Source: Acidobacteriota bacterium (GTDB lineage Bacteria; Acidobacteriota; Thermoanaerobaculia; Gp7-AA8). From it: a DNA stretch of 64,000 bases. Numbering within the stretch: the first letter of the stretch is position 1; each line of letters starts with the position of its first letter. This document shows, in pieces, positions 2,624 through 22,919 of the stretch. The stretch covers positions 3,991 through 67,990 of the forward strand of contig JAJXWV010000078.1 of the NCBI GenBank assembly GCA_021781455.1. The letters are read 5' to 3'. A program made the translations under genes and the position numbers. The notes below the pieces were generated by a model. It searched no databases and had not been told where the DNA came from. It was given only the letters and a program-made list of their open reading frames with translations.

Positions 2624-4333
2624 CTACAAGGTCGGCCGGCTCTCCTGCGCCATCACTCTTCCGATCTCACGCCAGGTCACGAGCTTCACGCCGTTGACCT
2701 GGAGCAGGTCGCGGAAGGCGTCGCTCGTCAGGAAGTCGAAATCGCGCTGGCGCCAGGCCGAGCCCCAGTTCGGGTGATCGACCGTGACGGACCGCATCTC
2801 CTCGTCGTCGTATGCGATGTGCACGATGAGCTCCGTCACTCCTGGCTCGAGCTTGCGGATCACGCCGGCGTAGAAGTCCCCCCATCCTTCGGGCGCGACC
2901 TCGGGGCCGATCGTCACGAAGCGGTCGATGACCACGTCGTCCGCGGTGATGAGCGGACCAAGCGACGGATCCTCGAGGAAGGCCGCCGGGATGGCCGCCG
3001 GAATCCTCCACTCCCGCGAAACGCGCAGGAGCATTCCGAACAGCGCCGCGTTCAAGTGAAGCGTGCGCATGTGCGCGTCGAGGTGCGTCGGCCTAACGCC
3101 CGCTTCGCGCAGTTTTTCGATCTGCGCGCGCACCTCGGCCTCTGCTTCCCGCACGTCGGCATGCGCGGCGGCCTGGTCCTCGGTCGCGTAGAAGTTGCCG
3201 CTCGCGTCCAGCAGCGAACGGACGTCCGCCTTCGGCAGCACTCCACCCCATCGATATCCCTTCCATTCGGCGGTCAGGGTCAGGTGCACGCCGAGGTCGG
3301 CGTCGGGGTGCTGGCGCGCCCATGCGGCGATCTCCTCGAATGAGGTACAGGGGACCATGATGCTGGCCGAGCTCACGAGCCCGCCGGTAAGCGCCCTGGT
3401 CGATGCCGCGTTGACGGAGTGCGCCATGCCGAGATCGTCGGCATGAACGATGAGGAGCTTCGTGCCTGCCGGATATCCGAGCCGCTCGGCGAGAGGCGTT
3501 GGCGAGGCCGGCGCAGGACGGACGGGCGGCGGGAAGACCTCCATCAGCGTGAAATCGACCCAGAAGATCGCTTCGGTGTTCGGCACGGCGCCCAGCAGGG
3601 CCTGGCCGATTTTCTGCGGAGGATCGTCGAATCGGATCCACCAGGGGCGGTCCGCTCTGTACCCGATCTGGAAGGCGACGGGCGCCGGCGCGAGTGCGTG
3701 GCCCCACGCGGAAAATTCTTTAACCATCGAATCGAGATCGGGAAAGATCTGCCCGTCGTTGATGAACACAATGCCGTCGCGCTCGGCCGGCGGCATCTTC
3801 TCGACGAGCCAGTGCTTCAGGAAGAGCCTGTAGTTCGAGCCGTGGCGGCGGATCGCACGGACCCACGCCCGCGCCTGCTCGTCGCTGACCGGATCGCCGG
3901 CGTCGGGCGTGCTGGAGCGGTACCACTCCACGTCGATACCGAAGCCCTGCACCGAGCGATGGCCTCCGTAGCGGCTCAGCACGACGTCGATGAGCTCCTC
4001 GACTGAAGCATGCGAGGGCTCGACCTGCAGCCAGACGCGGTAGCCGAGGCGATCGAAGCGCGCCAGCGCAGCCTCGTTGGCGTCCTCGGAAGAACCGGTG
4101 ATGAGAGGATCGCGTGCCGTCACAGGAAAGTTGAGGAGAATGCCGTTCCCGTTCTTCTTGCCCACGATCCAGATCGCTTCGGGGACGGCGCCGTCGAAAT
4201 GCTTCGCCATTTCGACTCCGGTGCGCGCCCAGTATTCCGGTCCGGGGTCATGCGGGGGACCGTAGACCGAGTATCGGAAGCCGGCGCCCTTCGGAGGAGG
4301 CGACTGAAGGCCTGTTGAGGCACACCCTGCCAT
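2624..4333 (-). CDS. Predicted lipoprotein: N-terminal TIM-barrel-like carbohydrate-hydrolase-type domain fused to a C-terminal YdjC/ChbG-family carbohydrate deacetylase
   Basis: The C-terminal half (LLIVHADDLGMAHSVNAASTRAL…HLDAH…) matches the YdjC-family N-terminal DD-G motif region. The N-terminal ~270 aa has no domain I can name, though GFGIDVEWY resembles a glycoside-hydrolase barrel strand. The annotated Met is followed by AGCAS (lipobox-like). A better signal peptide lies upstream in an adjacent frame; see findings. Confidence 0.65.
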   Translation of the reverse strand: MAGCASTGLQSPPPKGAGFRYSVYGPPHDPGPEYWARTGVEMAKHFDGAVPEAIWIVGKKNGNGILLNFPVTARDPLITGSSEDANEAALARFDRLGYRVWLQVEPSHASVEELIDVVLSRYGGHRSVQGFGIDVEWYRSSTPDAGDPVSDEQARAWVRAIRRHGSNYRLFLKHWLVEKMPPAERDGIVFINDGQIFPDLDSMVKEFSAWGHALAPAPVAFQIGYRADRPWWIRFDDPPQKIGQALLGAVPNTEAIFWVDFTLMEVFPPPVRPAPASPTPLAERLGYPAGTKLLIVHADDLGMAHSVNAASTRALTGGLVSSASIMVPCTSFEEIAAWARQHPDADLGVHLTLTAEWKGYRWGGVLPKADVRSLLDASGNFYATEDQAAAHADVREAEAEVRAQIEKLREAGVRPTHLDAHMRTLHLNAALFGMLLRVSREWRIPAAIPAAFLEDPSLGPLITADDVVIDRFVTIGPEVAPEGWGDFYAGVIRKLEPGVTELIVHIAYDDEEMRSVTVDHPNWGSAWRQRDFDFLTSDAFRDLLQVNGVKLVTWREIGRVMAQESRPTL

Positions 4334-4461: not shown

Positions 4462-4515
4462 GGCGGCCGCAGTCCATGCACGAGAGTTGCTGTGCTGTTA
4501 GAGAAGGAGGAGACG

Positions 4516-4946
4516 ATGGACCAGACTCGAGCGGTGACGAATTCCGAGGAGACTCCGGTCAATCGCGTGACGGTCGACGAGGTCAGGGCACGCCTCGACC
4601 GGCGTGAGCCGATCGTCTTCGTGGACAGTCGAAGCGAAAAGGCGTGGAACGGCTCCGAAGTGAAGATCCGGGGAGCGTTCCGAGTATCGCCGGAGCGCGC
4701 CGATGAGTTCCTGTCGCGCGTTCCGAAGGACCGCGGCGGCATCATCACCTACTGCACGTGACCGAACGAAGGATCAAGCGCCCGTGTGGCGCAGGTGCTG
4801 ATTCGTGCGGGGTTCAAGGACGTGCATGCGCTGCACGGCGGGTTGGAGGCGTGGCAGTCGGCCGGCGGCGCAGTCGAGCCGAAAGATGCGACCGCCGAAA
4901 TCCGCCCGCGCGACGAACAACGCCAGGACGAAGGACGGCGGGCCTG
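4516..4946 (+). CDS. Single-domain rhodanese (sulfurtransferase) interrupted by one in-frame TGA at 4759-4761 inside the active-site loop: candidate selenoprotein or nonsense-disrupted gene
   Basis: ATG at 4516 is preceded by GAAGGAGG. The first segment ends …RGGIITYCT then TGA. The same frame continues PNEGSSARVAQVLIRAGFKDVHALHGGLEAWQSAGGAVE… to a TGA at 4944-4946. Together the two halves form a complete GlpE-like rhodanese fold. A GC hairpin (GCGCC-CGUGU-GGCGC) begins ~16 nt after the internal UGA. Confidence 0.55.
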
Positions 4947-4954
4947 ACGTGTAG

Positions 4955-5614
4955 CTACGAGGGAAGCTCGAGACCGGTGTCGTCAAGTCGCGCCGGCGCG
5001 GGCAGGTCGCGGCTCGTGACCACGTCCACGCCCGCGGAGCGCATCTCGTCGAAGGCGCGCTCGATGTCTCCCCGTTCGAGCTCCACGCCGCGGCAGGCGT
5101 CGCGGATCACGTGCGTGCGGAAGCCCAGCCTCACCGCGTCACCCGCCGACCAGAGCACGCAGTAGTCGGTGGCCAGACCGCAGAGATAGACGTCGCTGAC
5201 TCCGTTCTTCCGCAGCTCGTCTTCCAGCCCTGTCGACTTGCGGCGGCCGTTGTCGAAGAAAGCGCTGTAGCTGTCGATCGAGGGATCGGTCCCTTTGCGC
5301 ACGATCCACTGGATCCGCGAGCGGACGAGATCGGGATGAAGCTCTGCGCCTTTCGTCCCCTGAACGCAGTGATCGGGCCAGAGGATCTGCTCGAGACCCG
5401 CGAGGTCGATGACTTCTCCCGGTTTCCTGCCGGGGTGGTTGGAGGCGAAGCTGCCGTGGTTCGCGGGATGCCAGTCCTGCGTGGCCACGACCAGCCCGAA
5501 CTGCGGCTGCAGGCGGTTGATGACCGGGACGACCTCGTTTCCACGCACGGTCGGCAACGCACCACCGGGCATGAAGTCGTTCTGAACATCGACGATCACG
5601 AGTGCGCGATTCAT
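4955..5614 (-). CDS. pncA: Nicotinamidase/pyrazinamidase (isochorismatase family)
   Basis: MNRALVIVDVQNDF…ATQDWHP…LCGLATDYCV carries the catalytic Asp/Lys/Cys and the metal-binding His pattern of PncA. AAGGAG lies upstream of the ATG. Confidence 0.85.
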   Translation of the reverse strand: MNRALVIVDVQNDFMPGGALPTVRGNEVVPVINRLQPQFGLVVATQDWHPANHGSFASNHPGRKPGEVIDLAGLEQILWPDHCVQGTKGAELHPDLVRSRIQWIVRKGTDPSIDSYSAFFDNGRRKSTGLEDELRKNGVSDVYLCGLATDYCVLWSAGDAVRLGFRTHVIRDACRGVELERGDIERAFDEMRSAGVDVVTSRDLPAPARLDDTGLELPS

Positions 5615-6360: not shown

Positions 6361-6449
6361 GGTCCCAGAGGTCTCAGAGGTCCCATCTGTCCCATGTTTC
6401 CCATTCGACGGGACCTCTGGGACTGACGGGACCTCTGGGACTCGTGGTC
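6361..6449. terminator. Double hairpin (2x CCCAGAGGTC then 2x GACCTCTGGG) between convergent hsp20 and receiver genes; likely bidirectional terminator or REP-like element
   Basis: ggtcccagaggtctcagaggtccc … gggacctctgggactgacgggacctctgggac read directly. Confidence 0.5.
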
Positions 6450-6864
6450 ATGGGCGCAATGGTCGTGCGTTCCGCGCGCAGTCGCGCACGGCGTCGCTGA
6501 GCGCCTTACGCGCAAACGGCTTGTGCAGAACGCGAAAGACACCGGCATCATCGAGGCGCTGCACGAGATCGTCGTCGTTTTCCGTGGTCGCCGCCACGAC
6601 GTGCTGCAGTGCGTCTTCCGATCCCGCCAGGAAATCGAACACGGGCGCGAATCCGGCGACCGGGCTCGGCTCAACGACCACCACGGCATAGGCGATCGTC
6701 CTCAGCCGCGCGATGGCCAGGCGCGCATCCGACACTTCGTCCACGACAAAACCCTCATTGCGGAGAATGGATGCTGCCACCCCGCAGAAGTCGGGATTGT
6801 CGTCGACAATCAGCACCGCCTGCCGCAACGCGATCTCCTCTTCTCGACGCTCCTGGCTCGTCAC
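6448..6864 (-). CDS. Atypical single-domain receiver (CheY-like) with Glu at the phospho-acceptor position
   Basis: LIVDDN (acidic pocket), HVVAATT (Thr) and VLHKPF (Lys) are conserved, but the acceptor Asp position reads AVVVVEPSP. Last gene of the kaiC operon. Confidence 0.7.
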   Translation of the reverse strand: MTSQERREEEIALRQAVLIVDDNPDFCGVAASILRNEGFVVDEVSDARLAIARLRTIAYAVVVVEPSPVAGFAPVFDFLAGSEDALQHVVAATTENDDDLVQRLDDAGVFRVLHKPFARKALSDAVRDCARNARPLRP

Positions 6865-6884
6865 GGTGAGTCACCGTCGAGGAC

Positions 6885-8453
6885 TCATGCCGTCGCTTCC
6901 ACATCGATGTTGAATCTCCTGACGAAGATCTGCTGCAGCTCCTCCACGCGGATCGGCTTCGTGAGATGCGCGTCGAAACCGGCCGCCGTGGCCTTGTCCT
7001 TGTCGTCGGCCTGGCCGAACCCGGTCAGCGCGATCAGCAGGATCGGATCGGACAGGTCCTCCCGCACGCGCCGCGCCACTTCGTAACCGTCGAGGCCGGG
7101 CATGCCGATGTCGATGATGGCCACGTCGGGACGGCTCTCCGTGATCCGGCGCAACCCGCTGTGGCCGTCCGAGGCCGTTTCCACGAGGTGCCCGAGCTTC
7201 TTGAGCTTGAGCTGCAGCAGGTCGCGGATGTCGGCGTTGTCGTCGACGATGACGATGCGCCGGGTGGCGCAGACGAGCTCCGCCGCCGTCGGCCGCGAGG
7301 GCGCCGCCGCCGGCAGGACCGCCTGTTCTTCCGCCAGCGGAAGGGTGACCGTGAAGGTGCTCCCCTGGTCCAGCCCCGGGCTTCGAGCCTCGACCTCTCC
7401 GCCGTGAAGCTGCACGAGAGTCCGCACGAGATGCAACCCGATGCCCATGCCTCCCTGAGCGCGTCCGATGGCGTTCTCGGCCTGGCTGAACAACTCGAAG
7501 ATCGAGTCGATGCGCTGCCGCGAGATGCCCACGCCGGTATCCGAGACCACGATGGCCGCCTTCCCCTCGCGCTTTTCCGTCCGGACCGCGATGCGACCGC
7601 CGGCGGTGGTGTACTTGAGAGCGTTGGTGATCAGGTTCGTGATGATCTGCTCGACGCGCAAGGCATCCGCGTGCACGACCAGAGGCTCGTCGGCGGCCTG
7701 GAAGCTGAGGCCGATCTCGCGCCGGGAGCTGTCGCCCTGCTGCGACTCCACACATTGCCGGACCACGGAGCTGAGCTCGAGCAGGCCGAGCTTCAAGGCG
7801 ATCTTCCCGGTGGTGATGCGCGACAGGTCGAGCAGATCGTCGACCAGACTGGAGAGATGGTGGGCCTGCCGCTCGATGCGCTCGGCATGCTGGGCATCGA
7901 GGGTGGCCGTCAGGGGATCGACCATCTGCGCGGCCAGGACGATCGCGCCTAACGGATTGCGCAGCTCGTGCCCCAGGATCGCCAGGAAGCGGTCGCGCTC
8001 GGTGATGCGGTCCTCGAGCTTGGCCAGAAGGTCGCGGATCTCGTATTGACGCGTCCGGGCCCTGGCCACCGCCTGAACGATGCTCACCACGCTCTTCATT
8101 CGCACCGGCCGGTCGACCAGCGTGACGTTGGCGCGCGGCCCGAGCTCCTCGAGCCGGCGCAGATAGCGGTGATCCGAATCGGGCCCAGTAAAGATCACGA
8201 TCGGGAAGTCGGACCACAAGGGCTGGTCGTCGATGAAGCTGCGCAGCGTCCGCACCACCGGCGGAACGAGGACTTCCTCGGTCGTCAGAAGCGCCAGGGA
8301 TTCGTTCCCCAGCCCCCGCTCCAGCTGCGAAACGTGCGGCACTTCGCCGGACGCCACGCCCGCGGCCTGCAGCACCCCCTTCAACAGCTCCGCGTCACGA
8401 CGGACCGGAGTGCAGATCAGTGCGGGCGAAGAGTGGACCGCCTGTTCGATCAT
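6885..8453 (-). CDS. Hybrid sensor histidine kinase: N-terminal pseudo-receiver, HisKA, HATPase_c, C-terminal canonical receiver
   Basis: H-box ILGHELRNPLGAI. ATPase N/G boxes ITNLITNALKYT, VSDTGVGI. C-terminal receiver with DDN…VAIIDIGMPGLDG…LTKP. The N-terminal ~130 aa is receiver-like but has T in place of the acceptor Asp (LALLTTEE). Confidence 0.85.
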   Translation of the reverse strand: MIEQAVHSSPALICTPVRRDAELLKGVLQAAGVASGEVPHVSQLERGLGNESLALLTTEEVLVPPVVRTLRSFIDDQPLWSDFPIVIFTGPDSDHRYLRRLEELGPRANVTLVDRPVRMKSVVSIVQAVARARTRQYEIRDLLAKLEDRITERDRFLAILGHELRNPLGAIVLAAQMVDPLTATLDAQHAERIERQAHHLSSLVDDLLDLSRITTGKIALKLGLLELSSVVRQCVESQQGDSSRREIGLSFQAADEPLVVHADALRVEQIITNLITNALKYTTAGGRIAVRTEKREGKAAIVVSDTGVGISRQRIDSIFELFSQAENAIGRAQGGMGIGLHLVRTLVQLHGGEVEARSPGLDQGSTFTVTLPLAEEQAVLPAAAPSRPTAAELVCATRRIVIVDDNADIRDLLQLKLKKLGHLVETASDGHSGLRRITESRPDVAIIDIGMPGLDGYEVARRVREDLSDPILLIALTGFGQADDKDKATAAGFDAHLTKPIRVEELQQIFVRRFNIDVEATA

Positions 8454-8478
8454 GGCGCGGCTCTTTCTCCCCCGATGC

Positions 8479-9963
8479 TCAAGGCGCGCCCATCCCTAAC
8501 GGCGGGTTCACTTCTTCGATGACCGGCGTGCCGGAAAGGACGCCGCGGAATCGCGTGAGCGCCGAGCCGATCTTGATCCCGTGCGCGGTGATCTGCAGCT
8601 CGCGAATCGAGGTCTCGTGAGCGCCGCTCCGCTTCTTGATCACCGAAATCGCCTTCCGGACCTGCCCCTGCGCTTCGAAATACCGGAGAAGAACCACGGA
8701 GTCGGCCAGATAGCTGATGTCCACGGTCGTCATCATCTGGCTACCGAGAAGACCGTGCTGCGCGAACACGAGAATCGTGGCGATGCCGTGCTGTCCGAGA
8801 AACGCCAGCAGCTCGTGCAGGTGGAGAAGGAGGTACTTCTCCTCGGGCATGGCATTGAGATAGCCGTTCAGGCTGTCGATGATCAGGACGCGCACGTCGT
8901 GATGCTCGACGGCCTCGCGAACCAGTTGCGCGAACTCGCCCGGCTGCAGCTCCGCCGGATCGACCTGCTGCACCATGATCTTTCCTGCCGCCACGAGCTC
9001 GGTCAGGTTGTAGCCGATGGCGTCGGAGCGATTGAACAGCGTGGTCAGGCTCTCGTCGAACGTGAAGAAGGCCGCGCCCTCGCCGCGCTGTGCCGCCGCC
9101 ACCGCGTACTGAGTGGCCAGCGCCGACTTCCCCGATCCGGCCGGACCCATGATCAGCGTGCTGGTGCCGCGGTCGAGGCCGCCGCCGAGAAGCGAGTCGA
9201 CTTCCGGGATCCCGCTGGAGACGAAGCTCTGCATGACGCGCATGCGCGACTCCGCCGCCACCAGGCGCGGGTAAACGACGATGCCCCCGGTGATGATGTT
9301 GAAATCGTGGTAGCCGGCGCGGAACTTCAGTCCGCGCACTTTCACCATCTGCAGCCGCCGGCGGGCCATGCCGTAATTCGGAGTGAAGCGCTCCATCTCC
9401 AGCACGCCGTGAGGGACGCTCTGCAGCTGCATGTCCTTCACGTCGGAGGTGCGGTCGTCGAGCAGCAGCGCCGTGATCCTGCGGGAATCGAAGAACTGCT
9501 TCAGGGCCAGGATCTGCTTCCGGTAGCGCAGAGAGCTCTGCGCCAGCAGACGAATCTCGGAGAGCGAGTCGAGCACCACCCGGTCGGGCGCGGCCTCGTC
9601 GATGGCGTCGAGCATCTTCTTGACCGCCGGACCGAGCTCGATCTCCGAGGCCTGGAAAATCGTGGAGTCTTCCTCGGCCAGCTCGTCCTCTCCGACCAGC
9701 TGCTCGACGATCTGGATGGGATCGAGATTCCATCCGTGCGATCGGGCCACGGCCCGCAGGTCGCGTTCCGATTCCGACATGGTGATGTACAGACCCCGCT
9801 CGCCGTTCCTCGCTCCCTCGAGCAGAAACTGCAGGGAGAGCGTCGTCTTGCCGACGCCGGGGTCGCCCTGGACGAGGTAAATGTGATTGCGCGGAAAGCC
9901 GCCATTCAGGATCCGGTCGAGCCCCTCGATTCCGGTGGCGGCGGCGTCGTCTTCAAAAGACAT
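8479..9963 (-). CDS. kaiC: KaiC-family double-domain RecA-like ATPase
   Basis: Two tandem KaiC/RadA-like domains, each with a Walker A (GDPGVGKTTLSLQF; GPAGSGKSALATQY), Walker B and catalytic Glu. 494 aa. AAGGAG before the ATG. Confidence 0.85.
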   Translation of the reverse strand: MSFEDDAAATGIEGLDRILNGGFPRNHIYLVQGDPGVGKTTLSLQFLLEGARNGERGLYITMSESERDLRAVARSHGWNLDPIQIVEQLVGEDELAEEDSTIFQASEIELGPAVKKMLDAIDEAAPDRVVLDSLSEIRLLAQSSLRYRKQILALKQFFDSRRITALLLDDRTSDVKDMQLQSVPHGVLEMERFTPNYGMARRRLQMVKVRGLKFRAGYHDFNIITGGIVVYPRLVAAESRMRVMQSFVSSGIPEVDSLLGGGLDRGTSTLIMGPAGSGKSALATQYAVAAAQRGEGAAFFTFDESLTTLFNRSDAIGYNLTELVAAGKIMVQQVDPAELQPGEFAQLVREAVEHHDVRVLIIDSLNGYLNAMPEEKYLLLHLHELLAFLGQHGIATILVFAQHGLLGSQMMTTVDISYLADSVVLLRYFEAQGQVRKAISVIKKRSGAHETSIRELQITAHGIKIGSALTRFRGVLSGTPVIEEVNPPLGMGAP

Positions 9964-10063
9964 CGCTGTTTCTCCTTGTGGTGCGACCCGTTGGTGGTTC
10001 TCTTTTCAAAATCCCCGCCCACCGGCACGAGAGATGCTCTCGGAGATTTCGGGAGGCCGCCGG

Positions 10064-11002
10064 ATGGCGTCATCCACCGCAGTCAAAATTCAAAATCCAA
10101 GCCGACTCGACCTTTTGCGCGAGGCGCACCTTCTCGGACCTGCGAACGGCGAAGCCTTCGACCGGCTGACCCGGATGGCCTCGAGGCTTCTCGATGCGCC
10201 GGGCGCGCTGATCTACCTGGCCGGGGAAGGGCACGGGTTCTACGGAAGTGTCATTGGAGGCGTTGCGGCGCCGCATGCTGACGTCGGGGGCGAAGGCCTT
10301 CTGCAGCGGGCGATACGCTCTCCGGCTGCGGTGGCCATCGATGACATCCATGCGGCGGGGATCGTCTCCGATCCTCTGCTCGGCGACTTCCATGCGCAGG
10401 CCTTTCTCGGTGCGCCTCTCGTCGTTCGCGGAATCGCCCTCGGCTCGTTCATCGTCGTCGACGTCCGGCCGCGGCACTGGTCGGAGCCGGAGATCCGCCT
10501 GATCGGCAGGCTCGCGCAGTCGGCGGCCGGCGAGATCGAGCTTCGTCTGGCCGCAACGGCAGTGGAGAGCTCGCGCGAAGGGACGCCGAAAGAAGCCTCG
10601 GCGAGCAACCGCCGCCGCGTCCTCATTGCCGAAGACGACGCGCCGATGCGAAAGCTCATCGTGCACTGCCTCGCCGGCGACGATTACGAAATCGAGGAGG
10701 CCCACGACGGGCGGGAGACCCTGGAGATCCTCCGGAAGCAACGGGTGGACGCCCTGGTTCTCGACCTGATCATGCCCGATCTCTCCGGCTGGGACGTCCT
10801 GCAGAAGCGCACCGAGGACGAGCGTCTGCGCCAGATTCCGGTGATCGTGGTCAGCGGCCGGCGCGGCCCCGACATCGCCCGAGCCGTGGCCTTCGGAATC
10901 TCGGGACTCCTGCCGAAGCCGTTCGAGGCCGGCGACCTGCGCGAGCTGGTCCGGTCGTGCCTGACCGAGAATCGAGCCGGCGGCCGCATCGCGGCGCACT
11001 GA
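10064..11002 (+). CDS. GAF-domain response regulator (GAF + canonical receiver)
   Basis: N-terminal GAF-like region (…GALIYLAGEGHGFYGSV…FLGAPLVVRGIALGSFIVVD…) followed by a receiver with AEDD…LVLDLIMPDLSGWD…LPKP. Start chosen at MASSTAV after GGGAGG; the ORF-track N-terminus would overlap kaiC. Confidence 0.7.
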   Translation: MASSTAVKIQNPSRLDLLREAHLLGPANGEAFDRLTRMASRLLDAPGALIYLAGEGHGFYGSVIGGVAAPHADVGGEGLLQRAIRSPAAVAIDDIHAAGIVSDPLLGDFHAQAFLGAPLVVRGIALGSFIVVDVRPRHWSEPEIRLIGRLAQSAAGEIELRLAATAVESSREGTPKEASASNRRRVLIAEDDAPMRKLIVHCLAGDDYEIEEAHDGRETLEILRKQRVDALVLDLIMPDLSGWDVLQKRTEDERLRQIPVIVVSGRRGPDIARAVAFGISGLLPKPFEAGDLRELVRSCLTENRAGGRIAAH

Positions 11003-11280
11003 TTCTTCAGGAGTCGTCGCGCGTCTTGTCGGGACGCACCGGGGACAGGCCGGGCAGATCGGGCATCATCGGCGGCAGTGGTGGTGGCTCCGGCGGAGGG
11101 AGCACCGGTTGCACGTCGGGACCGTCCGGTATGTTGAGGATGTCGATCTCCGGACCCTCGAATGGCCCAGGTCGACAACACCGTCGACGCAACCACGACC
11201 CTTCGCTCGATTCTGACGACGGCCGGCGTGCGCGATCGCTCCTCGCTCAAGGTGATCCAGCCCGAATAGCAGCGTCGCCG

Positions 11281-11345
11281 CCTGTCCCACCCGGGGGGCC
11301 TCTGAGGACAGGCTGGAAAGCCTGTCCCACACGGGGGGCACACGT
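11281..11345. repeat. REP-like element: GACAGGCT-GGAA-AGCCTGTC hairpin flanked by two CCTGTCCCACMCGGGGGG copies
   Basis: Read directly. A related element (CAGGCTGGAAAGCCTG x2 + CCCCACACGGGG) occurs at 49350-49410. Confidence 0.6.
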
Positions 11346-11399
11346 CAGTTTGTCCCCACGATGACCGGAGCGGTGGAAAGCGTCTAGCATCCTCAATCA

Positions 11400-13568
11400 A
11401 TGTCGTCCACGTCCGCCGGGATCCAGATCGTCGAGTTCATTGCTGCGCTTTCGCGCGCCTGGAAAAAGCTCGCCGCCTACCCGCCCGGCCATCCCGAGGT
11501 CGTCACCTCGCTCCAGGCGCTCAATCAACGGCTGGCCGAACTTCGCGGACCGGCCGGCGAAGTCGTTCTCGGCGTGGGCGCCGATGCGCTCGTCTACGGC
11601 GCCCTCGACATCACCTCCGCCGGCGCCCGGAAGCTCGCCCAGGCGCTCTACTCCCGCGGAGTGGCCGTGCTGCGCCTCGGAGCCGACACCAACATGCAGG
11701 AGATCGAAACGTTCCTGCGCCTTCTCGGCACGGGCGGCCCCGTTGATCCGAGGCGCGTGCTCTGGGAGGAGCTGACCGCCAACGGGGTGATCAACATCAA
11801 CCTGCAGCCGGTCAGTTACGGCACCGTCCAGGTCACGGACGGAGTGAGGGAACATCCGGAGAAGGAAGAAGAACGTTCGCTGTGGGACGAAGTGCTGAGG
11901 GCGCTCCTGAACAATCAGCAGTTCTCGGCGACATTGCGCGACCTGCCGCCGCACATCACTTCGGCCGACAAGCTGGCGAAGATGATCGCGGAGTACGCAG
12001 CGACGCCCGAGGAACAGGCCAGGCCGGTCGATGCGCAGGCCAGCTCCGGAATTCAGTTGCGCGAGCGCAGCGAAGAGGCCTTCCACCGCTTTTTCTTTCA
12101 GACCGTCGGCCACCACATTGCCACGATGACGGGGCAGAAAAAGCAGAACTCGCTGGAGCAGGCGGTGCAGTTGCTGCGCAGCCTGCCGGAGCAGCTCCGG
12201 CGTCCGCTGATCCGGGCCATCGCCGAGGCGCTGGCCTCGGACGACGGCTCGGCGGCGCTCCTGCGCGATTTCGCGAGTGAGCTTCCGAACGACGAAGTGC
12301 TCGACGCCCTTCGCTATCTCTCCTCGATGGACAAGCTGTCCAATCAGTCGCTGACGCTGCTGCATTCGATGTCGACGACGGAGGCCTCGCGGACCCAGGC
12401 GGCATCGAAAGAAGTGCTCGCGGATGTCATTCGTTTGTTCGGTGAAGACGACGTCGCTCGATTCAACCCCACCGAGCACGATGTGACGTTGAAGAGGATC
12501 TCGGTCGAGATTCCAATCGTTCCACCCGAAGCGATGCAGGGAATCGAGCCGGCCGGCGACCGCATCGATCCGGCCGCGAATGTCGAGATCCTGCGGCACT
12601 TCTTGGACGTGCTGCTCCTCCTCCTGGTGGGCCGTGACACGACGGCACCGCCCGCGACGACTCTGGCCCATCTGGAAGGAATCTTCCCGCCCCTTCTGGC
12701 AGCCGAGGAATACGACCATCTCGGGATCGTGGTGCAGCGCCTTCTCGGAGTGGCGACGTCGACTCCAGACGAGGAAGTGAAGACCGCCGCGCACGCATCG
12801 CTCCGCCGCATCAGCGACCTGATCGTCGAGCAGGCCACGGGTGCGTCGGACGAAGGCCTCACGAAGATGCAGCGGCTGATCGCCGCGCTTGACGTTCATG
12901 CGCGCCAGAGCTTCCTGGAAAAACTGGCACTGGAGAGCAACCGCTCACGACGACGGCGGCTCTTGAACTACATCGCCGCGCAGGGGACGTCGATCGTCCC
13001 TCAGGTGATCGCCTATCTGAACGACGAGCGATGGTACGTCGTGCGGAACATGATCGTGCTGCTCCGTGCGGTGAAGGACCAGACCTCGCTGCCCGAGATA
13101 CGCAGGCTGGCGCGCCATTCCGATCTTCGCGTGAGGATGGAGGCGCTGAAGAGTCTTTTCGCCATGGACGCGAACGTCCCGCCGACTCTCCTGGACAACC
13201 TCTTCAACGACACCGATCCGAAGGTCGGACAGACCGCGGTCGCACTGGCCGGAAACTACGCCATCAAAGAAGCCGTCGACCCACTCCTGCGGATCATCCA
13301 GGACCACGATTACCTCGGCGCCAGGCGGCCGTTGCGCGTCAAGGTCATCAGCGCACTCGGCGAAATCGGCGATCCGCGTGCCCTCGCGGCGATGCAGAAG
13401 TTCTTCACTTTCTCTTTCCTCCCCTGGCCGCCGCGGGAGGAACGCTATGCGGCCTGGCAGTCGCTCGCCGGATATCCGCCGGAAGCGCGGAAGCCACTCG
13501 TGGAGTCCGGGCTCAAGTCGTCTGACGGTCATGTGCGCGAGATCTGTTCGCGGATGAGGAACAGCTGA
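11400..13568 (+). CDS. Large protein with a novel N-terminal 'YPPGHP' domain, central helical region and C-terminal HEAT/PBS-lyase-like repeats
   Basis: 722 aa. The C-terminus has tandem HEAT-like repeats (…DLRVRMEALKSLFAMD…DPKVGQTAVALAGNYAIKEAVDPLLRII…RVKVISALGEIGDPRALAAM…). The N-terminal ~110 aa aligns with the N-terminus of the next gene. Confidence 0.6.
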   Translation: MSSTSAGIQIVEFIAALSRAWKKLAAYPPGHPEVVTSLQALNQRLAELRGPAGEVVLGVGADALVYGALDITSAGARKLAQALYSRGVAVLRLGADTNMQEIETFLRLLGTGGPVDPRRVLWEELTANGVININLQPVSYGTVQVTDGVREHPEKEEERSLWDEVLRALLNNQQFSATLRDLPPHITSADKLAKMIAEYAATPEEQARPVDAQASSGIQLRERSEEAFHRFFFQTVGHHIATMTGQKKQNSLEQAVQLLRSLPEQLRRPLIRAIAEALASDDGSAALLRDFASELPNDEVLDALRYLSSMDKLSNQSLTLLHSMSTTEASRTQAASKEVLADVIRLFGEDDVARFNPTEHDVTLKRISVEIPIVPPEAMQGIEPAGDRIDPAANVEILRHFLDVLLLLLVGRDTTAPPATTLAHLEGIFPPLLAAEEYDHLGIVVQRLLGVATSTPDEEVKTAAHASLRRISDLIVEQATGASDEGLTKMQRLIAALDVHARQSFLEKLALESNRSRRRRLLNYIAAQGTSIVPQVIAYLNDERWYVVRNMIVLLRAVKDQTSLPEIRRLARHSDLRVRMEALKSLFAMDANVPPTLLDNLFNDTDPKVGQTAVALAGNYAIKEAVDPLLRIIQDHDYLGARRPLRVKVISALGEIGDPRALAAMQKFFTFSFLPWPPREERYAAWQSLAGYPPEARKPLVESGLKSSDGHVREICSRMRNS

Positions 13569-13571
13569 GCC

Positions 13572-14657
13572 ATGGAACGCCTCGCCAGCATCATCGCCGC
13601 GGCCATCAACATGGTGGCACTGTATCCGCCGAATCACCCACGTGTGCAGCACGCCATCCTGGAGGTTCTGCAGGCCTTTCGAGAAGCGCTGCAGACCACG
13701 GGGGAGGAAGCGGCCTCGTATCTGCTCGTCGGCGACGACCTGCTGGCAGCCAACCAGGTGATCCGCGAAACGACACTTCCGGTCCGCGAATTCATCGGGG
13801 TGCTGAAGCAGCGTGGAGTGGAGAGCCTGGCACTCCTGCCGGGCGCCGATGAGCAGGAGATCATGCACCTGGTCACCGGCCTGGCCACGGGAGAAGCGCT
13901 GGAGTCGTCCACGCACGTCCAGCTCGGCACCGTTCACCTGGTCATGGACGAGAAACCGAAGGACGAAGAGCTGCGGCAGGACCTCGTCACGCAGTTCGAG
14001 CTCATGCGAGAGGCCTGGGCGCGCTTTCGCGTGGAACGAAAGCTTCCCGTCGATCAGCTGGAAGAGCTGGTGTGGAGCCTGATCGATTCGGTGGGGTCCA
14101 CGGCCCGGGCCATGTTGCCGCTGGCGAGATTGAGAGAGCTCGACGAGTACACGTTCGTCAACGCCATCAACGTTTCGCTGCTGGTCCTCGCCCAGGCCCG
14201 CTCACTCGGGATCTGGGGGCCCATGCTGCACGCCTTCGGCATGGCCGGCCTCCTCCACGACATCGGCAAGATGTCGATTCCGCCGAGCATTCTGAACAAA
14301 GCCGGCAAGCTGGACGACGACGAGTGGAAGGTCATGATGAGCCATCCATCCGAGGGAGCGTCGTACCTGTTGCAGATGGAGGGAGCGCCGCCGCTGAGCA
14401 TCATCGTGGCGTTCGAGCACCATCTCCGGCATGACGGCCGGCCCAACTACCCGCTCATCCGCGGGCGTCACAGTCCGCACCTGGCCAGTCGCATGACGGC
14501 CATCGCCGATGCCTACGACGGCATGTGCGCGACGCGGCCGTATCAGACCTCGGTCAGCCGCACCGCGGCCATGGAAGTCCTGAAGGCCAGGGCCCAAACG
14601 TTCTACGACCCGATGCTCGTAGCGAATTTCATCCGGATCGTCGGCGCAAACGCCTGA
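13572..14657 (+). CDS. HD-GYP domain c-di-GMP phosphodiesterase with the same novel N-terminal 'YPPxHP' domain
   Basis: HD-GYP signature HDIGK…EHHLRHDGRPNYP. The N-terminus (IIAAAINMVALYPPNHPRVQHAILEVL…) is homologous to the N-terminus of the preceding gene. Only 3 bp separate it from the upstream stop. Confidence 0.8.
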   Translation: MERLASIIAAAINMVALYPPNHPRVQHAILEVLQAFREALQTTGEEAASYLLVGDDLLAANQVIRETTLPVREFIGVLKQRGVESLALLPGADEQEIMHLVTGLATGEALESSTHVQLGTVHLVMDEKPKDEELRQDLVTQFELMREAWARFRVERKLPVDQLEELVWSLIDSVGSTARAMLPLARLRELDEYTFVNAINVSLLVLAQARSLGIWGPMLHAFGMAGLLHDIGKMSIPPSILNKAGKLDDDEWKVMMSHPSEGASYLLQMEGAPPLSIIVAFEHHLRHDGRPNYPLIRGRHSPHLASRMTAIADAYDGMCATRPYQTSVSRTAAMEVLKARAQTFYDPMLVANFIRIVGANA

Positions 14658-17215: not shown

Positions 17216-17310
17216 CACCGCATCGCATCGGCTGGTGACGATCGTTACGACCTCGACCGCGCCACGGGCGAACCATGGACGTGCATTCCATCGTCCGATC
17301 GGAGGTCCTC

Positions 17311-17946
17311 ATGTCGGATTCCACCAAGGGAGTTTCCCGCCGCGGATTCCTCAAGGGCGCGGGGAGCGCCGCCGCCGCCACGGCGCTGCTCGACTCGGCG
17401 GTCCTCACGGTGCGTGAGGCGACCGCGCAGATCACCGGTCCTCCGGTCTACGGCCCCGGCCGCACGGAACTGGCGCTCCACGTGAACGGTTCCGAGCGCA
17501 CCGTTCTCGTCGAGCCGCGCACCACCCTCGCCGCCGCCTTGCGCGACGAGCTCGATCTGACCGGCACGAAGGTGGTCTGCGATCGCGGCGCCTGCTCGGG
17601 ATGCACGGTCTGGATCGACGGCCTTCCGGTGGCCTCCTGCATGACCCTGGCGATCGACGCCGCCGGCAGGAAGATCACGACGATCGAGGGTCTGGCCACG
17701 GGCGACAAGCTGCACCCGGTGCAGGAGGCCTTCATCGAAAAGGACGCCATGCAGTGCGGCTTCTGCACTCCCGGCATGGTGATGACCGCGGCGGCGCTGC
17801 TGGAGCGGAATCCCGATCCCACGCTCGACGACGTGAAGGAGGCCGTGAGCGGCAACCTCTGCCGCTGCGCGGTCTACCCGCAGGTCTTCGAGGCCACTCT
17901 GGCCGCGGCGAAGAAGCGGAAGGCTAGCCAGATCGCAGGTAGCTAG
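17311..17946 (+). CDS. Molybdenum hydroxylase (xanthine dehydrogenase/aldehyde oxidoreductase family) small [2Fe-2S] subunit with Tat signal peptide
   Basis: The twin-arginine motif SRRGFLKG follows MSDSTKG. There are two [2Fe-2S] Cys clusters (CDRGACSGCTV; QCGFCTPGMVM…CRC). GGAGG RBS. The earlier ORF-track Met is rejected. Confidence 0.85.
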   Translation: MSDSTKGVSRRGFLKGAGSAAAATALLDSAVLTVREATAQITGPPVYGPGRTELALHVNGSERTVLVEPRTTLAAALRDELDLTGTKVVCDRGACSGCTVWIDGLPVASCMTLAIDAAGRKITTIEGLATGDKLHPVQEAFIEKDAMQCGFCTPGMVMTAAALLERNPDPTLDDVKEAVSGNLCRCAVYPQVFEATLAAAKKRKASQIAGS

Positions 17947-18008
17947 TGCGCTTTGCCAAAGACTTGCGCTCCGCCCTCTGCGCTCCAGACATCGAGGAGT
18001 GACCGATC

Positions 18009-20324
18009 ATGACCGAAGAAACAAGCAGGAAGACCCGCCCCGAGACGCTGACCGTCGGGATCGCGGGATCGAGGCTCACCACGACGCAGCGGGAAGTCCC
18101 AGCCAACGATCCGCCACCGCTGCCGCCTAACAGCGATCTCCACGTCGTCGGCAAGCGCGTTCCGCGCATCGACGGCGCCCGCATCGTCACCGGCGCGGCC
18201 CGATACACAGCCGACATCCGGCTGCCGGGCATGCTCTACGCGCGGATGATCACCTCGCCGCATCCGCACGCGCGCATCGCCTCGATCGACACCGCGGCCG
18301 CTGCGGCCTGTCCTGGAGTGCGCGCCGTGCACGTGCTCGATCGCTACGAGAAGGATCCCATCGTCCGTTATGCCGGACAGCCGGTCGCCGCCGTCGCTGC
18401 CGTCTCGCAGGCGGCGGCCGACGAGGCCGCGCGCCTGGTGCGGATCGCCTGGGAGCCGCTCCCCTTCGTCGTCGACGTCGAGTCTGCACGCGCCGCCGAT
18501 GCTCCGCTCGTCTATCCGCCGAATCCCGACGACAAGGTGCCGCGCAAGGGCAATGTCCGCGGTCCGGTGAAGCGAGGACCGCGCGGCAAGCCCGCCGGAG
18601 ACGCCCTCGACGCTCTCGCCAATTCCCCCGTCGTCGTCGACCACACCTATCGCACGCAGGTCCAGACGCACGCCACGCTCGAGACTCACGGCGTCGTCGC
18701 CGACTGGCAGCCCGGCTCCGCGATCGTCTACGCATCCACGCAGGCCACGGTCGCCTTTCGCGACGAGCTCGCCGAGGTGTTCGGAATCCCCAAGGCCCGC
18801 ATCCGCATCATCACCGAGTACATGGGCGGCGGCTTCGGCTCGAAGCTCGGAATGGGACCGTATGGCGTGCTCGCCCTTCATCTCTCGAAAAAGGCGGGCA
18901 GGCCGGTCCGCCTGATGCTCGATCGGCGCGAGGAGCAGCGCTGCACCGGCAACCGCCCCAGCTCCGTCCAGCACCTCCGCCTCGGCGCAACCAGAGACGG
19001 CAAGCTGACGGCCATTCACCTGTCGAGTTACGGCACCGGCGGCGTGGGCGGCGGCGCCGGCAGCGCCGGCCCCGCGCAGAACATGTACGACTGCCCGAAC
19101 GTCGAGACCGAAGAAGCGGACGTGTTCACGCACGCCGGCCCGTCGGCGGCCATGCGCGCTCCCGGCCATCCGCAGGGTTGCTTCGCGCTCGAACAGTCGA
19201 TCGATGCAGTGGCCGAGAAGCTCGGCATCGACCCTCTGCGACTGCGCGACCTCAACGACAGCAACGCCGCCCGCCGCGAGGAACGGCGCATCGGCGCCGA
19301 GATGATCGGCTGGTCTGCCCGCCACAAGCCGGGCGCCGACAAGGGAACCATCCGGCGCGGCATCGGCGCCGCGCAGTCGATCTGGTACCGCTTCGTGCGG
19401 CTCGACTCCGCCTGCGAAGTGCGGCTGGACCGCGAAGGGTCGGTGGAGATCGTCAGCGCCGTCCAGGACATCGGCACCGGCATCCGTACCGTCCTCGCGC
19501 AGGTCGTGGCCGAAGAGCTGGGCATCGATCCGCGCGGGGTCATCGTCAGGATCGGCGACACCTCCTTCCCCGCCGGACCCTCGTCGGGCGGCAGCCTGAC
19601 CACGGGCTCGATCACGCCCCCGGCGCGCAACGCCGCTCACGGCGTGCGCACGCAACTCCTCGAGGTCGCCGCTCCGCTGCTGAAGGCGGATCCTGCCCAT
19701 CTCGACCTGCGCGAAGGACGCGTGGTGGTCAAGAGCGACCCCTCGCGCAGCATCTCCCTGCGCGAGGCGGCGGCGAAGATCGGCCCCGACCAGATCGCCG
19801 TTCGCGCGCGCCGAAGCGAGGATTACGGCACCCCGCCCCTGCCGCCCGGTCAGACCTCCGGAATGGGCCTGGAGATCTACGGCGGCGTCCAGTTCGCCCA
19901 GGTGGCCGTCGACACGGGAACCGGCGCGATCAAGGTGGAGCGGGTGGTGGCGGTGCACGACTGCGCGCGTCCGATGAACCCGCTCACCATCGAGAGCCAG
20001 ATCAAGGGCGGCATCATCCAGGGAATCTCGTATGCCCTGTTCGAGGACCGCACGCTCGACGCGAACGCCGGGCTGATGGTCAATCCGAACCTGGAGATGT
20101 ACAAGATCGCCGGCTCGCGCGAAACGCCGGTCATCGACGTTCACCTGCTCGAGGAATACATCGGCCGCACTTCGACCGACGCCGGCGGCATCGGCGAGCC
20201 CGCCACGATTCCGACGGCCGCGGCCGTGGCCAACGCCGTCCACAACGCCCTCGGCGTGCGCATGCTGGAGCTGCCGATGACCCCTGACCGCGTGCTCAGT
20301 GCACTGCGCACCGTGAGGAGCTGA
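18009..20324 (+). CDS. Molybdenum hydroxylase large molybdopterin-binding subunit
   Basis: 771 aa with N-terminal a/b-hammerhead and MoCo-binding regions typical of the XDH/CoxL/PaoC family (GKRVPRIDG…, GGGFGSK…, catalytic Glu region …DCARPMNPL…). Confidence 0.85.
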   Translation: MTEETSRKTRPETLTVGIAGSRLTTTQREVPANDPPPLPPNSDLHVVGKRVPRIDGARIVTGAARYTADIRLPGMLYARMITSPHPHARIASIDTAAAAACPGVRAVHVLDRYEKDPIVRYAGQPVAAVAAVSQAAADEAARLVRIAWEPLPFVVDVESARAADAPLVYPPNPDDKVPRKGNVRGPVKRGPRGKPAGDALDALANSPVVVDHTYRTQVQTHATLETHGVVADWQPGSAIVYASTQATVAFRDELAEVFGIPKARIRIITEYMGGGFGSKLGMGPYGVLALHLSKKAGRPVRLMLDRREEQRCTGNRPSSVQHLRLGATRDGKLTAIHLSSYGTGGVGGGAGSAGPAQNMYDCPNVETEEADVFTHAGPSAAMRAPGHPQGCFALEQSIDAVAEKLGIDPLRLRDLNDSNAARREERRIGAEMIGWSARHKPGADKGTIRRGIGAAQSIWYRFVRLDSACEVRLDREGSVEIVSAVQDIGTGIRTVLAQVVAEELGIDPRGVIVRIGDTSFPAGPSSGGSLTTGSITPPARNAAHGVRTQLLEVAAPLLKADPAHLDLREGRVVVKSDPSRSISLREAAAKIGPDQIAVRARRSEDYGTPPLPPGQTSGMGLEIYGGVQFAQVAVDTGTGAIKVERVVAVHDCARPMNPLTIESQIKGGIIQGISYALFEDRTLDANAGLMVNPNLEMYKIAGSRETPVIDVHLLEEYIGRTSTDAGGIGEPATIPTAAAVANAVHNALGVRMLELPMTPDRVLSALRTVRS

Positions 20325-20326
20325 CC

Positions 20327-21295
20327 ATGGATCGCTTCGAATACGTGAGCGCAACGACGGTGGCCGAGGCTCTGGCCCAGCTCGGTGAAGGACGCCAGGT
20401 GAAAGCCGGCGGGATCGACCTGCTGGACCGGATGAAGGAAGGCCTCTCCTCGCCGAAGCGGATAGTCAACATACGTACTATCTCGGAATTGGACGGCGTG
20501 GAGATCGACGCCTCCGGCCTGACGATCGGGCCGACCACCACCCTGGCCACCGTGGCCGCGCATGAGCCGCTCCGCGATTCGTATCGGGCCATCGCCGATG
20601 CGGCGCGCGCCGCCGCCACGCCCCAGATCCGCAATGTGGCCACGGCAGGGGGCAACCTGCTGCAGCGGCCGCGCTGCTGGTACTTCCGCGAACGCGATTT
20701 CGATTGCCTGCGCAAGGGCGGCCAGGGATGCTTCGCGCAGGACGGAGCGAACCGCTATCACGCCATCTTCGGCAACGACCTCTGCGCGATGGTGCATCCG
20801 TCCGACCTCGCCGTTCCTCTGACCGCCTTTGACGCCGTTCTCGACCTGACCAGCGCCAAAGGAACGCGAAAGGTTCCGATCTCCACGTTCTACGTCGGGC
20901 CGGAGACCGATCCCACGCGCGAGACCGACCTGCACCGCGACGAGCTCCTGACGGCCATCCGCGTCCCGGCACCACCGCCCGGCACCCGCTCCGCCTACTT
21001 CAAACAGAAGGAAAAGGAGAGCGCCGATTGGCCGCTCGCCGGCGTGGCGGTGGCGCTGCAGATTTCCAGCGGAGTCGTCCAGCGCGCCTCGGTCGTCCTC
21101 GGCGCGGTGGCCGCCACTCCCTGGAGATCGAAACCCGCCGAAGCCGCGCTGACCGGGCGCGCCATCGACGAGGCCGCGGCGAGGCGCGCCGCAGCAGCGG
21201 CTGTCGCGGATGCGAAACCGCTCGCCTGGAACGGATACAAAGTCGCGGTCCTCGAGACCATCATCCGCAGAACCATCCTGGAGGCGGCATCGTGA
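20327..21295 (+). CDS. Molybdenum hydroxylase FAD-binding (medium) subunit
   Basis: CoxM/XdhB-like FAD-binding domain (…AGGNLLQRPRCWYFRE…) followed by a CO-dehydrogenase-flavoprotein C-terminal-like domain. 3 bp after the large-subunit stop. Confidence 0.8.
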   Translation: MDRFEYVSATTVAEALAQLGEGRQVKAGGIDLLDRMKEGLSSPKRIVNIRTISELDGVEIDASGLTIGPTTTLATVAAHEPLRDSYRAIADAARAAATPQIRNVATAGGNLLQRPRCWYFRERDFDCLRKGGQGCFAQDGANRYHAIFGNDLCAMVHPSDLAVPLTAFDAVLDLTSAKGTRKVPISTFYVGPETDPTRETDLHRDELLTAIRVPAPPPGTRSAYFKQKEKESADWPLAGVAVALQISSGVVQRASVVLGAVAATPWRSKPAEAALTGRAIDEAAARRAAAAAVADAKPLAWNGYKVAVLETIIRRTILEAAS

Positions 21296-22094: not shown

Positions 22095-22919
22095 TCAAGG
22101 CGGCGCGACGAGCTGCAGGCGCGACCGCACGATCTGCTGCCAGCGTGAGCGCTGATTCATCGGATCGCCGGCTGCGATCAGAGGAGTGAGTCCATCGCGG
22201 CGAAGGATCGACTGGTGGCGCGCCAGTTCGGCTTCGAGGTCGCTGGCGGACCGCAACGGATGGGTCCGAACCTCAGGATCGAACAGTCGCTCGAGAAGGG
22301 CGACGGCCTTCTGCAGCGCCCGCGTACGCCACAGCGGCGTCGCAGCCACGGTGGCGACCTCGACGAGCTCGGCGTCGTCGATCGTCCACGAGCGGAACTT
22401 CGCCAGGATCGGGCCGAACGACAGCGCCGCGTCGAGGTTCCCGACGAGGTCCAGCCAGATGCCCGACGGATGGACGAACGTGTCAACGCAGCGCCGGCTC
22501 CCTTGTGACGCATCCGAGCAGTCGCGCATCAGCAGAGTAAAGCCGAGGTCGGTGGCCGCGGCGCGGTAGGGAGCAAGCTTCGCGCACATCAGGGCCGCGC
22601 CGTTGTTGCGGCACAGGGCCGCGCGATCAGGGCCGTTGGCCCGGCCTTCGATGTCTTTCGGAAGTGCGCTCATGACGCCGGTCGCAACCTCTGTGGCAAA
22701 TATTGGCTCCCATCCTATTGATGTCAATGCAATAAGGAACAGGCGGCACCGCCGCCGTAGAAATTGAGGGTACGGAGTGCCCGGCATACCAGGGTCATCT
22801 GTCGCGCGCTTGGTGTGCACGGCGCGACTCCGGCGGGCGGACGCCGGCCTGACAGGCTCAGCAGATCGCGGCGGCGGCGCCTCCGACGCCTCGCAACGAG
22901 CGCGACAGCATGACACCAC
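22095..22919 (-). CDS. Hypothetical protein (start uncertain; likely begins near MSALPKD, ~22700)
   Basis: Good coding composition in the C-terminal ~200 aa. No recognisable domain. Confidence 0.4.
   Translation of the reverse strand: MVSCCRARCEASEAPPPRSAEPVRPASARRSRAVHTKRATDDPGMPGTPYPQFLRRRCRLFLIALTSIGWEPIFATEVATGVMSALPKDIEGRANGPDRAALCRNNGAALMCAKLAPYRAAATDLGFTLLMRDCSDASQGSRRCVDTFVHPSGIWLDLVGNLDAALSFGPILAKFRSWTIDDAELVEVATVAATPLWRTRALQKAVALLERLFDPEVRTHPLRSASDLEAELARHQSILRRDGLTPLIAAGDPMNQRSRWQQIVRSRLQLVAPP

Follow-up and report, generated by a model that had tools for sequence, protein, structure and literature searches.

An in-frame UGA codon in the active-site loop of a single-domain rhodanese gene: a probable selenoprotein related to the CxU family NF041203

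Introduction

Two forms of rhodanese that contain selenocysteine (Sec) bear closely on the gene described here. In the first, Sec forms part of a CxU motif. This rhodanese selenoprotein, of which TKB26178.1 is an example, appears in one review as 'form 3, NF041203' (PMC13188914) and in another as 'COG0607 form 2' (PMC9312934), and both credit it to Zhang and Gladyshev (2005, Bioinformatics 21:2580). According to these reviews, most such predicted selenoproteins have no known function (PMC9312934, PMC13188914). The second is a rhodanese-related sulfurtransferase with a UxU motif, found in the delta-proteobacterial symbionts of Olavius algarvensis (PMC1976440). Acidobacteria and Chloroflexi are both known to contain selenoproteins (PMC1794560).

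The stretch of DNA analysed here, 64 kb in length and referred to below as the window, contains a rhodanese gene whose frame is crossed by one TGA codon. The original prediction offered two principal readings, a selenoprotein with a Cys-Thr-Sec motif or a very recent nonsense mutation. Our comparisons favour the first: positions 4516-4947 very probably constitute one gene, encoding a 143-residue single-domain rhodanese selenoprotein in which UGA is recoded as Sec. We prefer this reading because the UGA and the frame that follows it are conserved in more than 100 species and are paired with Cys in other homologs, because the downstream segment is under purifying selection, because a covarying hairpin specific to the TGA forms follows the codon, and because the protein matches a curated (seleno)protein family, NF041203.

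Results

A single reading frame with one in-frame TGA

The features of the locus are as follows.

4505..4510, forward strand: Shine-Dalgarno sequence AGGAGG, 5 nt upstream of the ATG at 4516, read directly from the sequence
4516..4947, forward strand: predicted rhodanese selenoprotein gene, 143 codons plus the stop TGA at 4945-4947; codon 82, TGA, is the predicted Sec
4753..4761, forward strand: C-T-U motif of the active-site loop, TGC (Cys80), ACG (Thr81) and TGA (predicted Sec82)
4778..4792, forward strand: candidate SECIS apical hairpin, 5-bp stem GCGCC/GGCGC, loop CGUGU, 16 nt after the UGA
4786..4947, forward strand: 53-aa ORF of the automatic annotation, with an in-frame GTG start

Translation places the single in-frame TGA at 4759-4761, in the active-site loop as predicted, and this codon is the sole interruption of the frame 4516-4947. 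Its context is ...GGIITYCT-(UGA)-PNEGSSARVAQVL... or, in a longer form, ...KDRGGIITYCT-(UGA)-PNEGSSARVAQVLIRAGFKDVHALHGGLEAW...; the motif reads TYC-T-[TGA]-PNEGSSARVA, with Y-C-T-[UGA] at 4750-4761. The complete rhodanese that had been proposed for 4516-4946 is indeed encoded in a single frame and spans the Pfam domain PF00581 from end to end, but its true end is at 4947. The good codon bias reported for both halves is borne out by codon-position GC contents that are coding-like on each side of the TGA, GC1/2/3 being 0.63/0.50/0.82 upstream and 0.80/0.52/0.75 downstream. The gene is flanked by a YdjC-domain gene (2624-4333) and an isochorismatase-family gene (4955-5614), both on the reverse strand.

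TGA is the commonest ordinary stop codon in the window, terminating 19 of its 28 long ORFs, and a reassigned genetic code is therefore not the explanation. The codon at 4759-4761 is the only in-frame TGA flanked by long ORFs in the 64 kb that is neither an antisense shadow nor a gene junction. Examination of the remaining in-frame TGAs between long ORFs across the 64 kb yielded no further selenoprotein gene, all being shadows or junctions of this kind; the TGA at 13566-13568, for instance, lies at the junction of a HEAT-repeat gene and an HD-domain gene.

Protein family and active site

With Cys substituted at the TGA, the translated protein matches the Pfam Rhodanese family PF00581 with an E-value of 2.2e-11 and 44.6 bits, against a gathering score of 22.2, over profile positions 1-101/102. 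The top match among NCBIfam models is NF041203.1, 'rhodanese_LYCAU, rhodanese-related (seleno)protein' (106.7 bits, E 6e-31). This score is 8 bits under the curated cutoff of 115 and some 70 bits ahead of the next match. When ten orthologs were scored against the same model, only a deltaproteobacterial one (L028, 117 bits) passed, the others lying between 77 and 105 bits. The window gene either belongs to the NF041203 CxU family or sits just outside it. Since only one of the ten tested orthologs passes the cutoff, the YCTU proteins of soil Acidobacteriota and Chloroflexota form a wider shell around curated NF041203. The C-x-U motif of that family is present as Y-C-T-[UGA], so the resemblance to CxU motifs first remarked on because of the Cys two positions before the UGA extends to the best-matching family. 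The description of the protein as GlpE-like holds at the level of the fold only, as it scores 33.9 bits with the GlpE-type model NF001195, for which the cutoff is 102.

The AlphaFold model of a Cys homolog (P0002, pLDDT 87.9) has the rhodanese fold, with a TM-score of about 0.77 to solved rhodanese domains. Its central strand ends at the Tyr and is followed by a six-residue loop, C-T-C-P-N-E, and by a helix that begins at D-S-S. In this secondary structure, the first Cys occupies the canonical catalytic position and the Sec position follows two residues further on in the loop. Of two HMMER alignments to 6mxv, the first likewise places Cys80 on the catalytic Cys; the other places the UGA position there, producing a canonical U-X4-S loop, U-P-N-E-G-S. 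The claim that the loop is two residues longer than CX4R accordingly stands if Cys80 is catalytic, as in the model and the first alignment, and falls if the UGA position is. Under either alignment, the Cys and Sec positions are two residues apart in the active-site cradle.

P0012, a close relative of 115 aa from the search of cluster representatives, retains neither the Cys nor the residue at the Sec/Cys position (IITYRTEHYEASSARAAQ) but still has the S-S-A-R-A-A helix start. Judged by its sequence, it is likely to be a catalytically dead paralog.

Conservation of the TGA and its exchange with Cys

Full-length homologs (P0002, P0003 and P0005) have Cys at the position of the window TGA, reading TYCTCPNE[ED]SS, within the pattern TYCTCPxE. 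The same TYCTCPxE pattern, with Cys at the TGA position, is found in 102 genuine Cys forms from JGI metagenomes, which were collected as a control with a scan pattern in which TGY replaced TGA.

An ortholog on a farmland-soil contig (L001), 67% identical to the window protein, carries TGA at the same codon and has an intact frame downstream (...VVTYCT-(UGA)-PSEASSARVARELLRAGWDDVHALHGGFEAWQAAGGAVEPKVS). For the 39 codons after the TGA, comparison of the window with this ortholog gives a dN/dS of 0.14 at a dS of 1.06, from which we conclude that this segment is translated and that purifying selection acts on it. The contig of the ortholog begins, within positions 1-60, with a region that contains a perfect inverted repeat of 20 nt (ttcaccgcagaggcgcagag...ctctgcgcctctgcggtgaa), and it has approximately six CACCGAA heptamers in tandem at 535-580, downstream of the gene.

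A search for related loci based on the protein alignment offered no stretch that was conserved enough, and degenerate DNA patterns across the active site were used. Scanning one genome per GTDB species with the pattern [IV]-[TA]-Y-C-T-TGA-P-x-E-x-S gave at least 120 loci. Upon translation of these species-representative loci, about 118 of 120 among the matches listed are genuine rhodanese domains with an in-frame TGA, and nearly all of those listed continue in frame as P-x-E-x-[ST]-S-A-[RGS]-[VAL]-A...GG[FL]xAW...G.P. Among the matches listed, Acidobacteriota are represented by Terriglobales, Thermoanaerobaculia, Blastocatellia and Pyrinomonadaceae, and Chloroflexota by Anaerolineae, Chloroflexia, Dehalococcoidia, Ktedonobacterales, Thermomicrobiales and Limnocylindria; Methylomirabilota/Rokubacteria, Rubrobacter, Solirubrobacterales, Armatimonadota, Verrucomicrobiia, Binatus and deltaproteobacteria are listed as well. 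The closest named relatives of the window protein among them are from Pyrinomonadaceae, at 57% and 52% identity, which makes the source organism a probable member of Acidobacteriota. Alignment of orthologs at this position, proposed as a check on the prediction, thus returns either TGA or Cys, and the TGA is not unique to the window genome.

When 1.84 billion cluster representatives (50% identity) were searched exhaustively with HMMER, four more proteins that end exactly at ...YCT came to light (P0120, P0131, P0140 and P0141). One MAG, MFD09206.bin.2.153, has an identical Sec-rhodanese protein on two contigs, 462 and 22389 (L032 and L082), which reflects either a gene duplication or redundant contigs in the bin.

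A hairpin specific to the TGA forms

The hairpin GCGCC-CGUGU-GGCGC, suggested as a SECIS about 16 nt after the UGA, is positioned exactly as described. It lies inside the codons for S-A-R-V-A-Q, where the helix after the active-site loop begins. We made an ungapped alignment of 119 TGA forms, extending from the codon before the TGA through 54 nt after it. Columns 22-27 and 33-36 (window 4777-4782 and 4788-4791) are near-invariant in these 119 forms, third codon positions included. In the five-pair core, where 4778-4782 face 4788-4792, the pairs are standard ones in 95-99% of the forms. Compensatory and wobble exchanges are seen: six from CG to UA, 26 from GC to GU, and single swaps of CG and AU. 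The loop-closing pair is A-U in 18 of the 119 sequences and G-C in 12, and the second base of the loop, a G (column 29, window 4784), is invariant. For the helix formed by columns 21-28 with 32-39, none of 500 shuffles reached the observed covariation score, and the register was better than all slid controls. Pairing in a longer lower stem (columns 21-22 with 38-39) occurs in only about one-third to one-half of the sequences, and we do not claim that this extension is conserved.

The Cys forms served as the control. A perfect 5-bp stem is present in 89% of the 119 TGA forms versus 10% of the 102 Cys forms. In subsets matched for the peptide S-A-x-x-A, the first Ala codon is GCC in 111 of 112 Sec forms versus 13 of 31 Cys forms, and the second is GCG in 102 of 112 versus 12 of 31. 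Synonymous sites in the hairpin are fixed in the Sec forms only; the constraint, being absent from the Cys forms, is tied to the TGA, as is expected of a recoding RNA element. Both the S-A-R-V-A peptide and its synonymous sites would be frozen in the TGA forms because the hairpin is written into those codons.

Folding of the window sequence 4750-4840 by itself was uninformative in this 66% GC genome (z = 0.23 versus shuffles). No Rfam family matched at gathering scores in the 64-kb window, and a search of 4500-4960 at E-values up to 10 returned three noise matches only (gabT, L-myc IRES and sR2) and no bacterial SECIS family. In the comparative data, being covarying and specific to the TGA forms, the hairpin at 4778-4792 nevertheless behaves as a bacterial SECIS would.

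Selenocysteine machinery and a proposed mechanism

Searches with tblastn using E. coli SelA, SelB and SelD (E <= 1e-5) did not find selA, selB or selD in the 64-kb window or at about 240 related loci, and ARAGORN did not find tRNA-Sec in the window or in the flanks of these loci. The Sec machinery is therefore not co-located with the rhodanese gene. ARAGORN reported a 90-nt 'tRNA-Asp (GTC)' on the reverse strand at 22248-22337, inside a high-GC3 ORF on the forward strand (22156-22569). This is not a tRNA-Sec; no Rfam tRNA reaches the gathering score in the window, and the call is probably a false positive. Elsewhere in the window, at 17239-21295 on the forward strand, is a three-gene molybdenum hydroxylase cluster encoding a [2Fe-2S] subunit, a molybdopterin-binding subunit (PF02738/PF20256) and an FAD-binding subunit (PF00941). 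Some enzymes of the molybdenum hydroxylase class use a labile selenium cofactor.

The comparative evidence, taken with the bacterial Sec pathway, suggests that the UGA at 4759-4761 would be recoded to Sec during translation with the hairpin at 4778-4792 acting as the SECIS. By analogy with that pathway, the hairpin would recruit SelB-GTP with Sec-tRNASec to the ribosome while the UGA is in the A site. The product would carry a Cys-Thr-Sec triad in the rhodanese active-site loop, for which the most likely chemistry is that of a selenol nucleophile. The selenol might be loaded with sulfane sulfur or with selenium, giving a selenopersulfide or a perselenide, or it might cycle through a selenenylsulfide with Cys80.

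Fusions and gene neighbours

In several loci, the Sec-rhodanese is the C-terminal end of an ORF of approximately 460-1070 aa (L021, L036 and L055), and long ORFs ending in a TGA-rhodanese are likewise seen in L027, L048, L064, L083, L084, L093 and L126. The N-terminal part of L021 is a Na+/H+ exchanger membrane domain (PF00999, E 3e-32), a fusion that is absent from the rhodanese forms in the selenoprotein reviews examined. A second type of fusion, in L011 and L123, consists of a trypsin-like peptidase (PF13365, E 4e-24), a predicted membrane-spanning stretch and then the Sec-rhodanese; similar lengths are found in L023, L037, L039, L045, L062, L099, L107, L110 and L120. These peptidase-TM-Sec-rhodanese fusions come from Methylomirabilota/Rokubacteria, Verrucomicrobiia and Limnocylindria MAGs.

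Clustering of the ORFs that lie up to 3.5 kb to either side of the TGA, in the window and in the genome loci, revealed no widely shared gene neighbour. A LuxR-type response regulator formed the largest group, with 13 loci, followed by a CPx-type heavy-metal P-type ATPase in 12 genome loci, which lies some 1.5 kb upstream of the rhodanese, as in L057. No other neighbour recurs, and these two do so too rarely for an operon to be called. In the window, the rhodanese locus adjoins a signalling cluster (6448-14657) that encodes a response regulator, a hybrid histidine kinase, a KaiC-like double ATPase, a GAF-response regulator and HEAT-repeat and HD-domain proteins. The gene order of this cluster is the same in all of the longer contigs that bear the gene (L002, L003 and L006).

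Alternative readings of the UGA codon

The alternative that survives best, improbable as we judge it, is that the UGA is translated without selenium, either by SECIS/SelB-like machinery that inserts Cys by means of a tRNASec-like, opal-suppressing tRNACys or by near-cognate readthrough. A selC* tRNACys with a UCA anticodon, together with a second selB copy, is known in some deltaproteobacteria, and unusual suppressor-type allo-tRNAs have been reported in Acidobacteria (PMC5389517). Moreover, the Sec at the window UGA is itself a prediction from comparison. The selC* systems described, however, are those of anaerobic Firmicutes, Nitrospirae, Thermodesulfobacteria and Proteobacteria, and not of the phyla that carry the window-type gene (PMC5389517). 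The Cys homologs simply use TGC or TGT, and there is no reason why more than 100 species should retain a costly UGA and hairpin in order to insert Cys. Finally, the family NF041203 is curated as a selenoprotein.

We consider it very unlikely that the TGA is a recent nonsense mutation, which would reduce the gene to a pseudogene yielding only an inactive 81-residue N-terminal fragment. Automatic annotation does call this 81-aa product (P0001), which is on record from 11 contigs, and a few relatives look decayed after the TGA. Two of them lose the conserved rhodanese C-terminus soon after this codon, L065 continuing as ...UPREATSTRAARRRDGRGLDVRLPS and L096 diverging in frame after ...ALKGGL; these may be frameshifted or decaying copies. 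Against this, the same TGA is present in the 67%-identical ortholog and in about 118 species of several phyla, with the frame kept in nearly all of them, and both the low downstream dN/dS and the structured element that follows the codon in TGA forms point to a functional gene. The second option of the original prediction is contradicted by this conservation of the codon and of the frame beyond it.

Equally hard to credit is a pair of separate small genes, one for the 81-aa N-terminal protein and one for a 53-aa protein starting at GTG 4786. Gene callers annotate the locus in this way in contigs L003-L007, and the in-frame GTG 4786 that they use shows that the earlier statement that the downstream half has no start of its own was incorrect. 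Neither fragment is a complete rhodanese domain, however, whereas the two joined in one frame make up PF00581 1-101/102, and the Cys homologs are single polypeptides. GTG 4786, in addition, is within the hairpin loop and is preceded by no Shine-Dalgarno sequence. The 53-aa ORF continues the frame of the N-terminal half, and the conserved GGxxAW at the end of the domain lies within it; we conclude that as a separate gene it is an artefact of taking the TGA for a stop, its residues being the C-terminal portion of the rhodanese.

The least credible proposal, a sequencing or assembly error concealing a true TGC or TGT, has in its favour only the a priori possibility of error in a metagenome assembly, and it is contradicted by the same TGA in more than 100 unrelated assemblies and in the six contigs examined. 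Of these six, three are from ENA assemblies, one is from the NCBI MAG GCA_027458965.1 and two are from independent Logan assemblies of SRA runs; across these separate assemblies and read sets, every contig matches the window without a difference over 4.8 kb.

Discussion

The selenoprotein reading corrects the annotation of the locus, in that two 'hypothetical' ORFs of 81 and 53 aa become one selenoprotein gene, and it makes it very likely that the source organism uses selenocysteine. Because the same mis-annotation is found in well over 100 species-level MAGs, the use of selenium by soil Acidobacteriota and Chloroflexota is probably under-counted. As a discovery the gene is of modest value; its family has been in the literature since 2005 and a specialist would not be surprised by it. 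The interest that remains is in the unexpectedly wide distribution of the Y-C-T-U clade in soil phyla, in the fusion forms and in the codon contrast between Sec and Cys forms. With 119 Sec and 102 Cys forms, the last of these amounts to a natural experiment on how a SECIS constrains the codons that it overlaps, in the peptide they encode as well as at their synonymous sites.

A broader proposal, which we put forward tentatively as one that could prove right but that we would stop short of calling probable, is that the Y-C-T-U rhodaneses are more than stray members of NF041203 and form a selenoprotein clade of far greater size, for the most part unannotated, that is found in soil and sediment bacteria and covers at least 118 species in about eight phyla. 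The clade would include the Na+/H+ exchanger and the trypsin-like peptidase-TM fusions, and its SECIS would be hard-wired into the S-A-R-V/A-A helix start. If this is true, the Y-C-T-U clade is among the most widespread of Acidobacteriota and Chloroflexota selenoproteins, and one that annotation systematically misses by splitting it into 81-aa and 53-aa products.

Comparison with known systems places the gene as follows. In E. coli fdhF and fdnG, the SECIS is a stem-loop directly 3' of the UGA, within the coding region, with an apical loop that contains G and U. The window hairpin is similarly 3' of its UGA and in coding sequence, with G and U in its loop, and by this analogy it would be a putative SelB site; it differs in that the stem conserved in the window family is only 5-8 bp long and has a family-specific sequence. 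As for the protein, the single-domain thiosulfate sulfurtransferases GlpE and PspE of E. coli have the same fold, size and C-terminal GGxxAW signature, but they have one catalytic Cys and no Sec, and their segment from the catalytic residue to GGxxAW is two residues shorter than that of the window protein. The Olavius UxU protein is likewise a rhodanese selenoprotein, and its two chalcogen residues have the same spacing of two positions. Both positions are Sec in that protein, whereas the first is Cys here; the analogy suggests that both positions of the C-x-U pair may be chemically active.

The closest likeness is to the CxU family NF041203, with which the window protein shares a single rhodanese domain of about 120 residues, a predicted Sec two residues after a conserved Cys (Y-C-x-U) and the existence of Cys homologs. 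It departs from that family in reading Y-C-T-U, where the name of the model gives L-Y-C-A-U, and in scoring 106.7 bits against the cutoff of 115. Overall, we conclude that the observation is genuine, if not novel: the window gene is a mis-annotated member of a selenoprotein family first described in 2005, or lies close outside that family.
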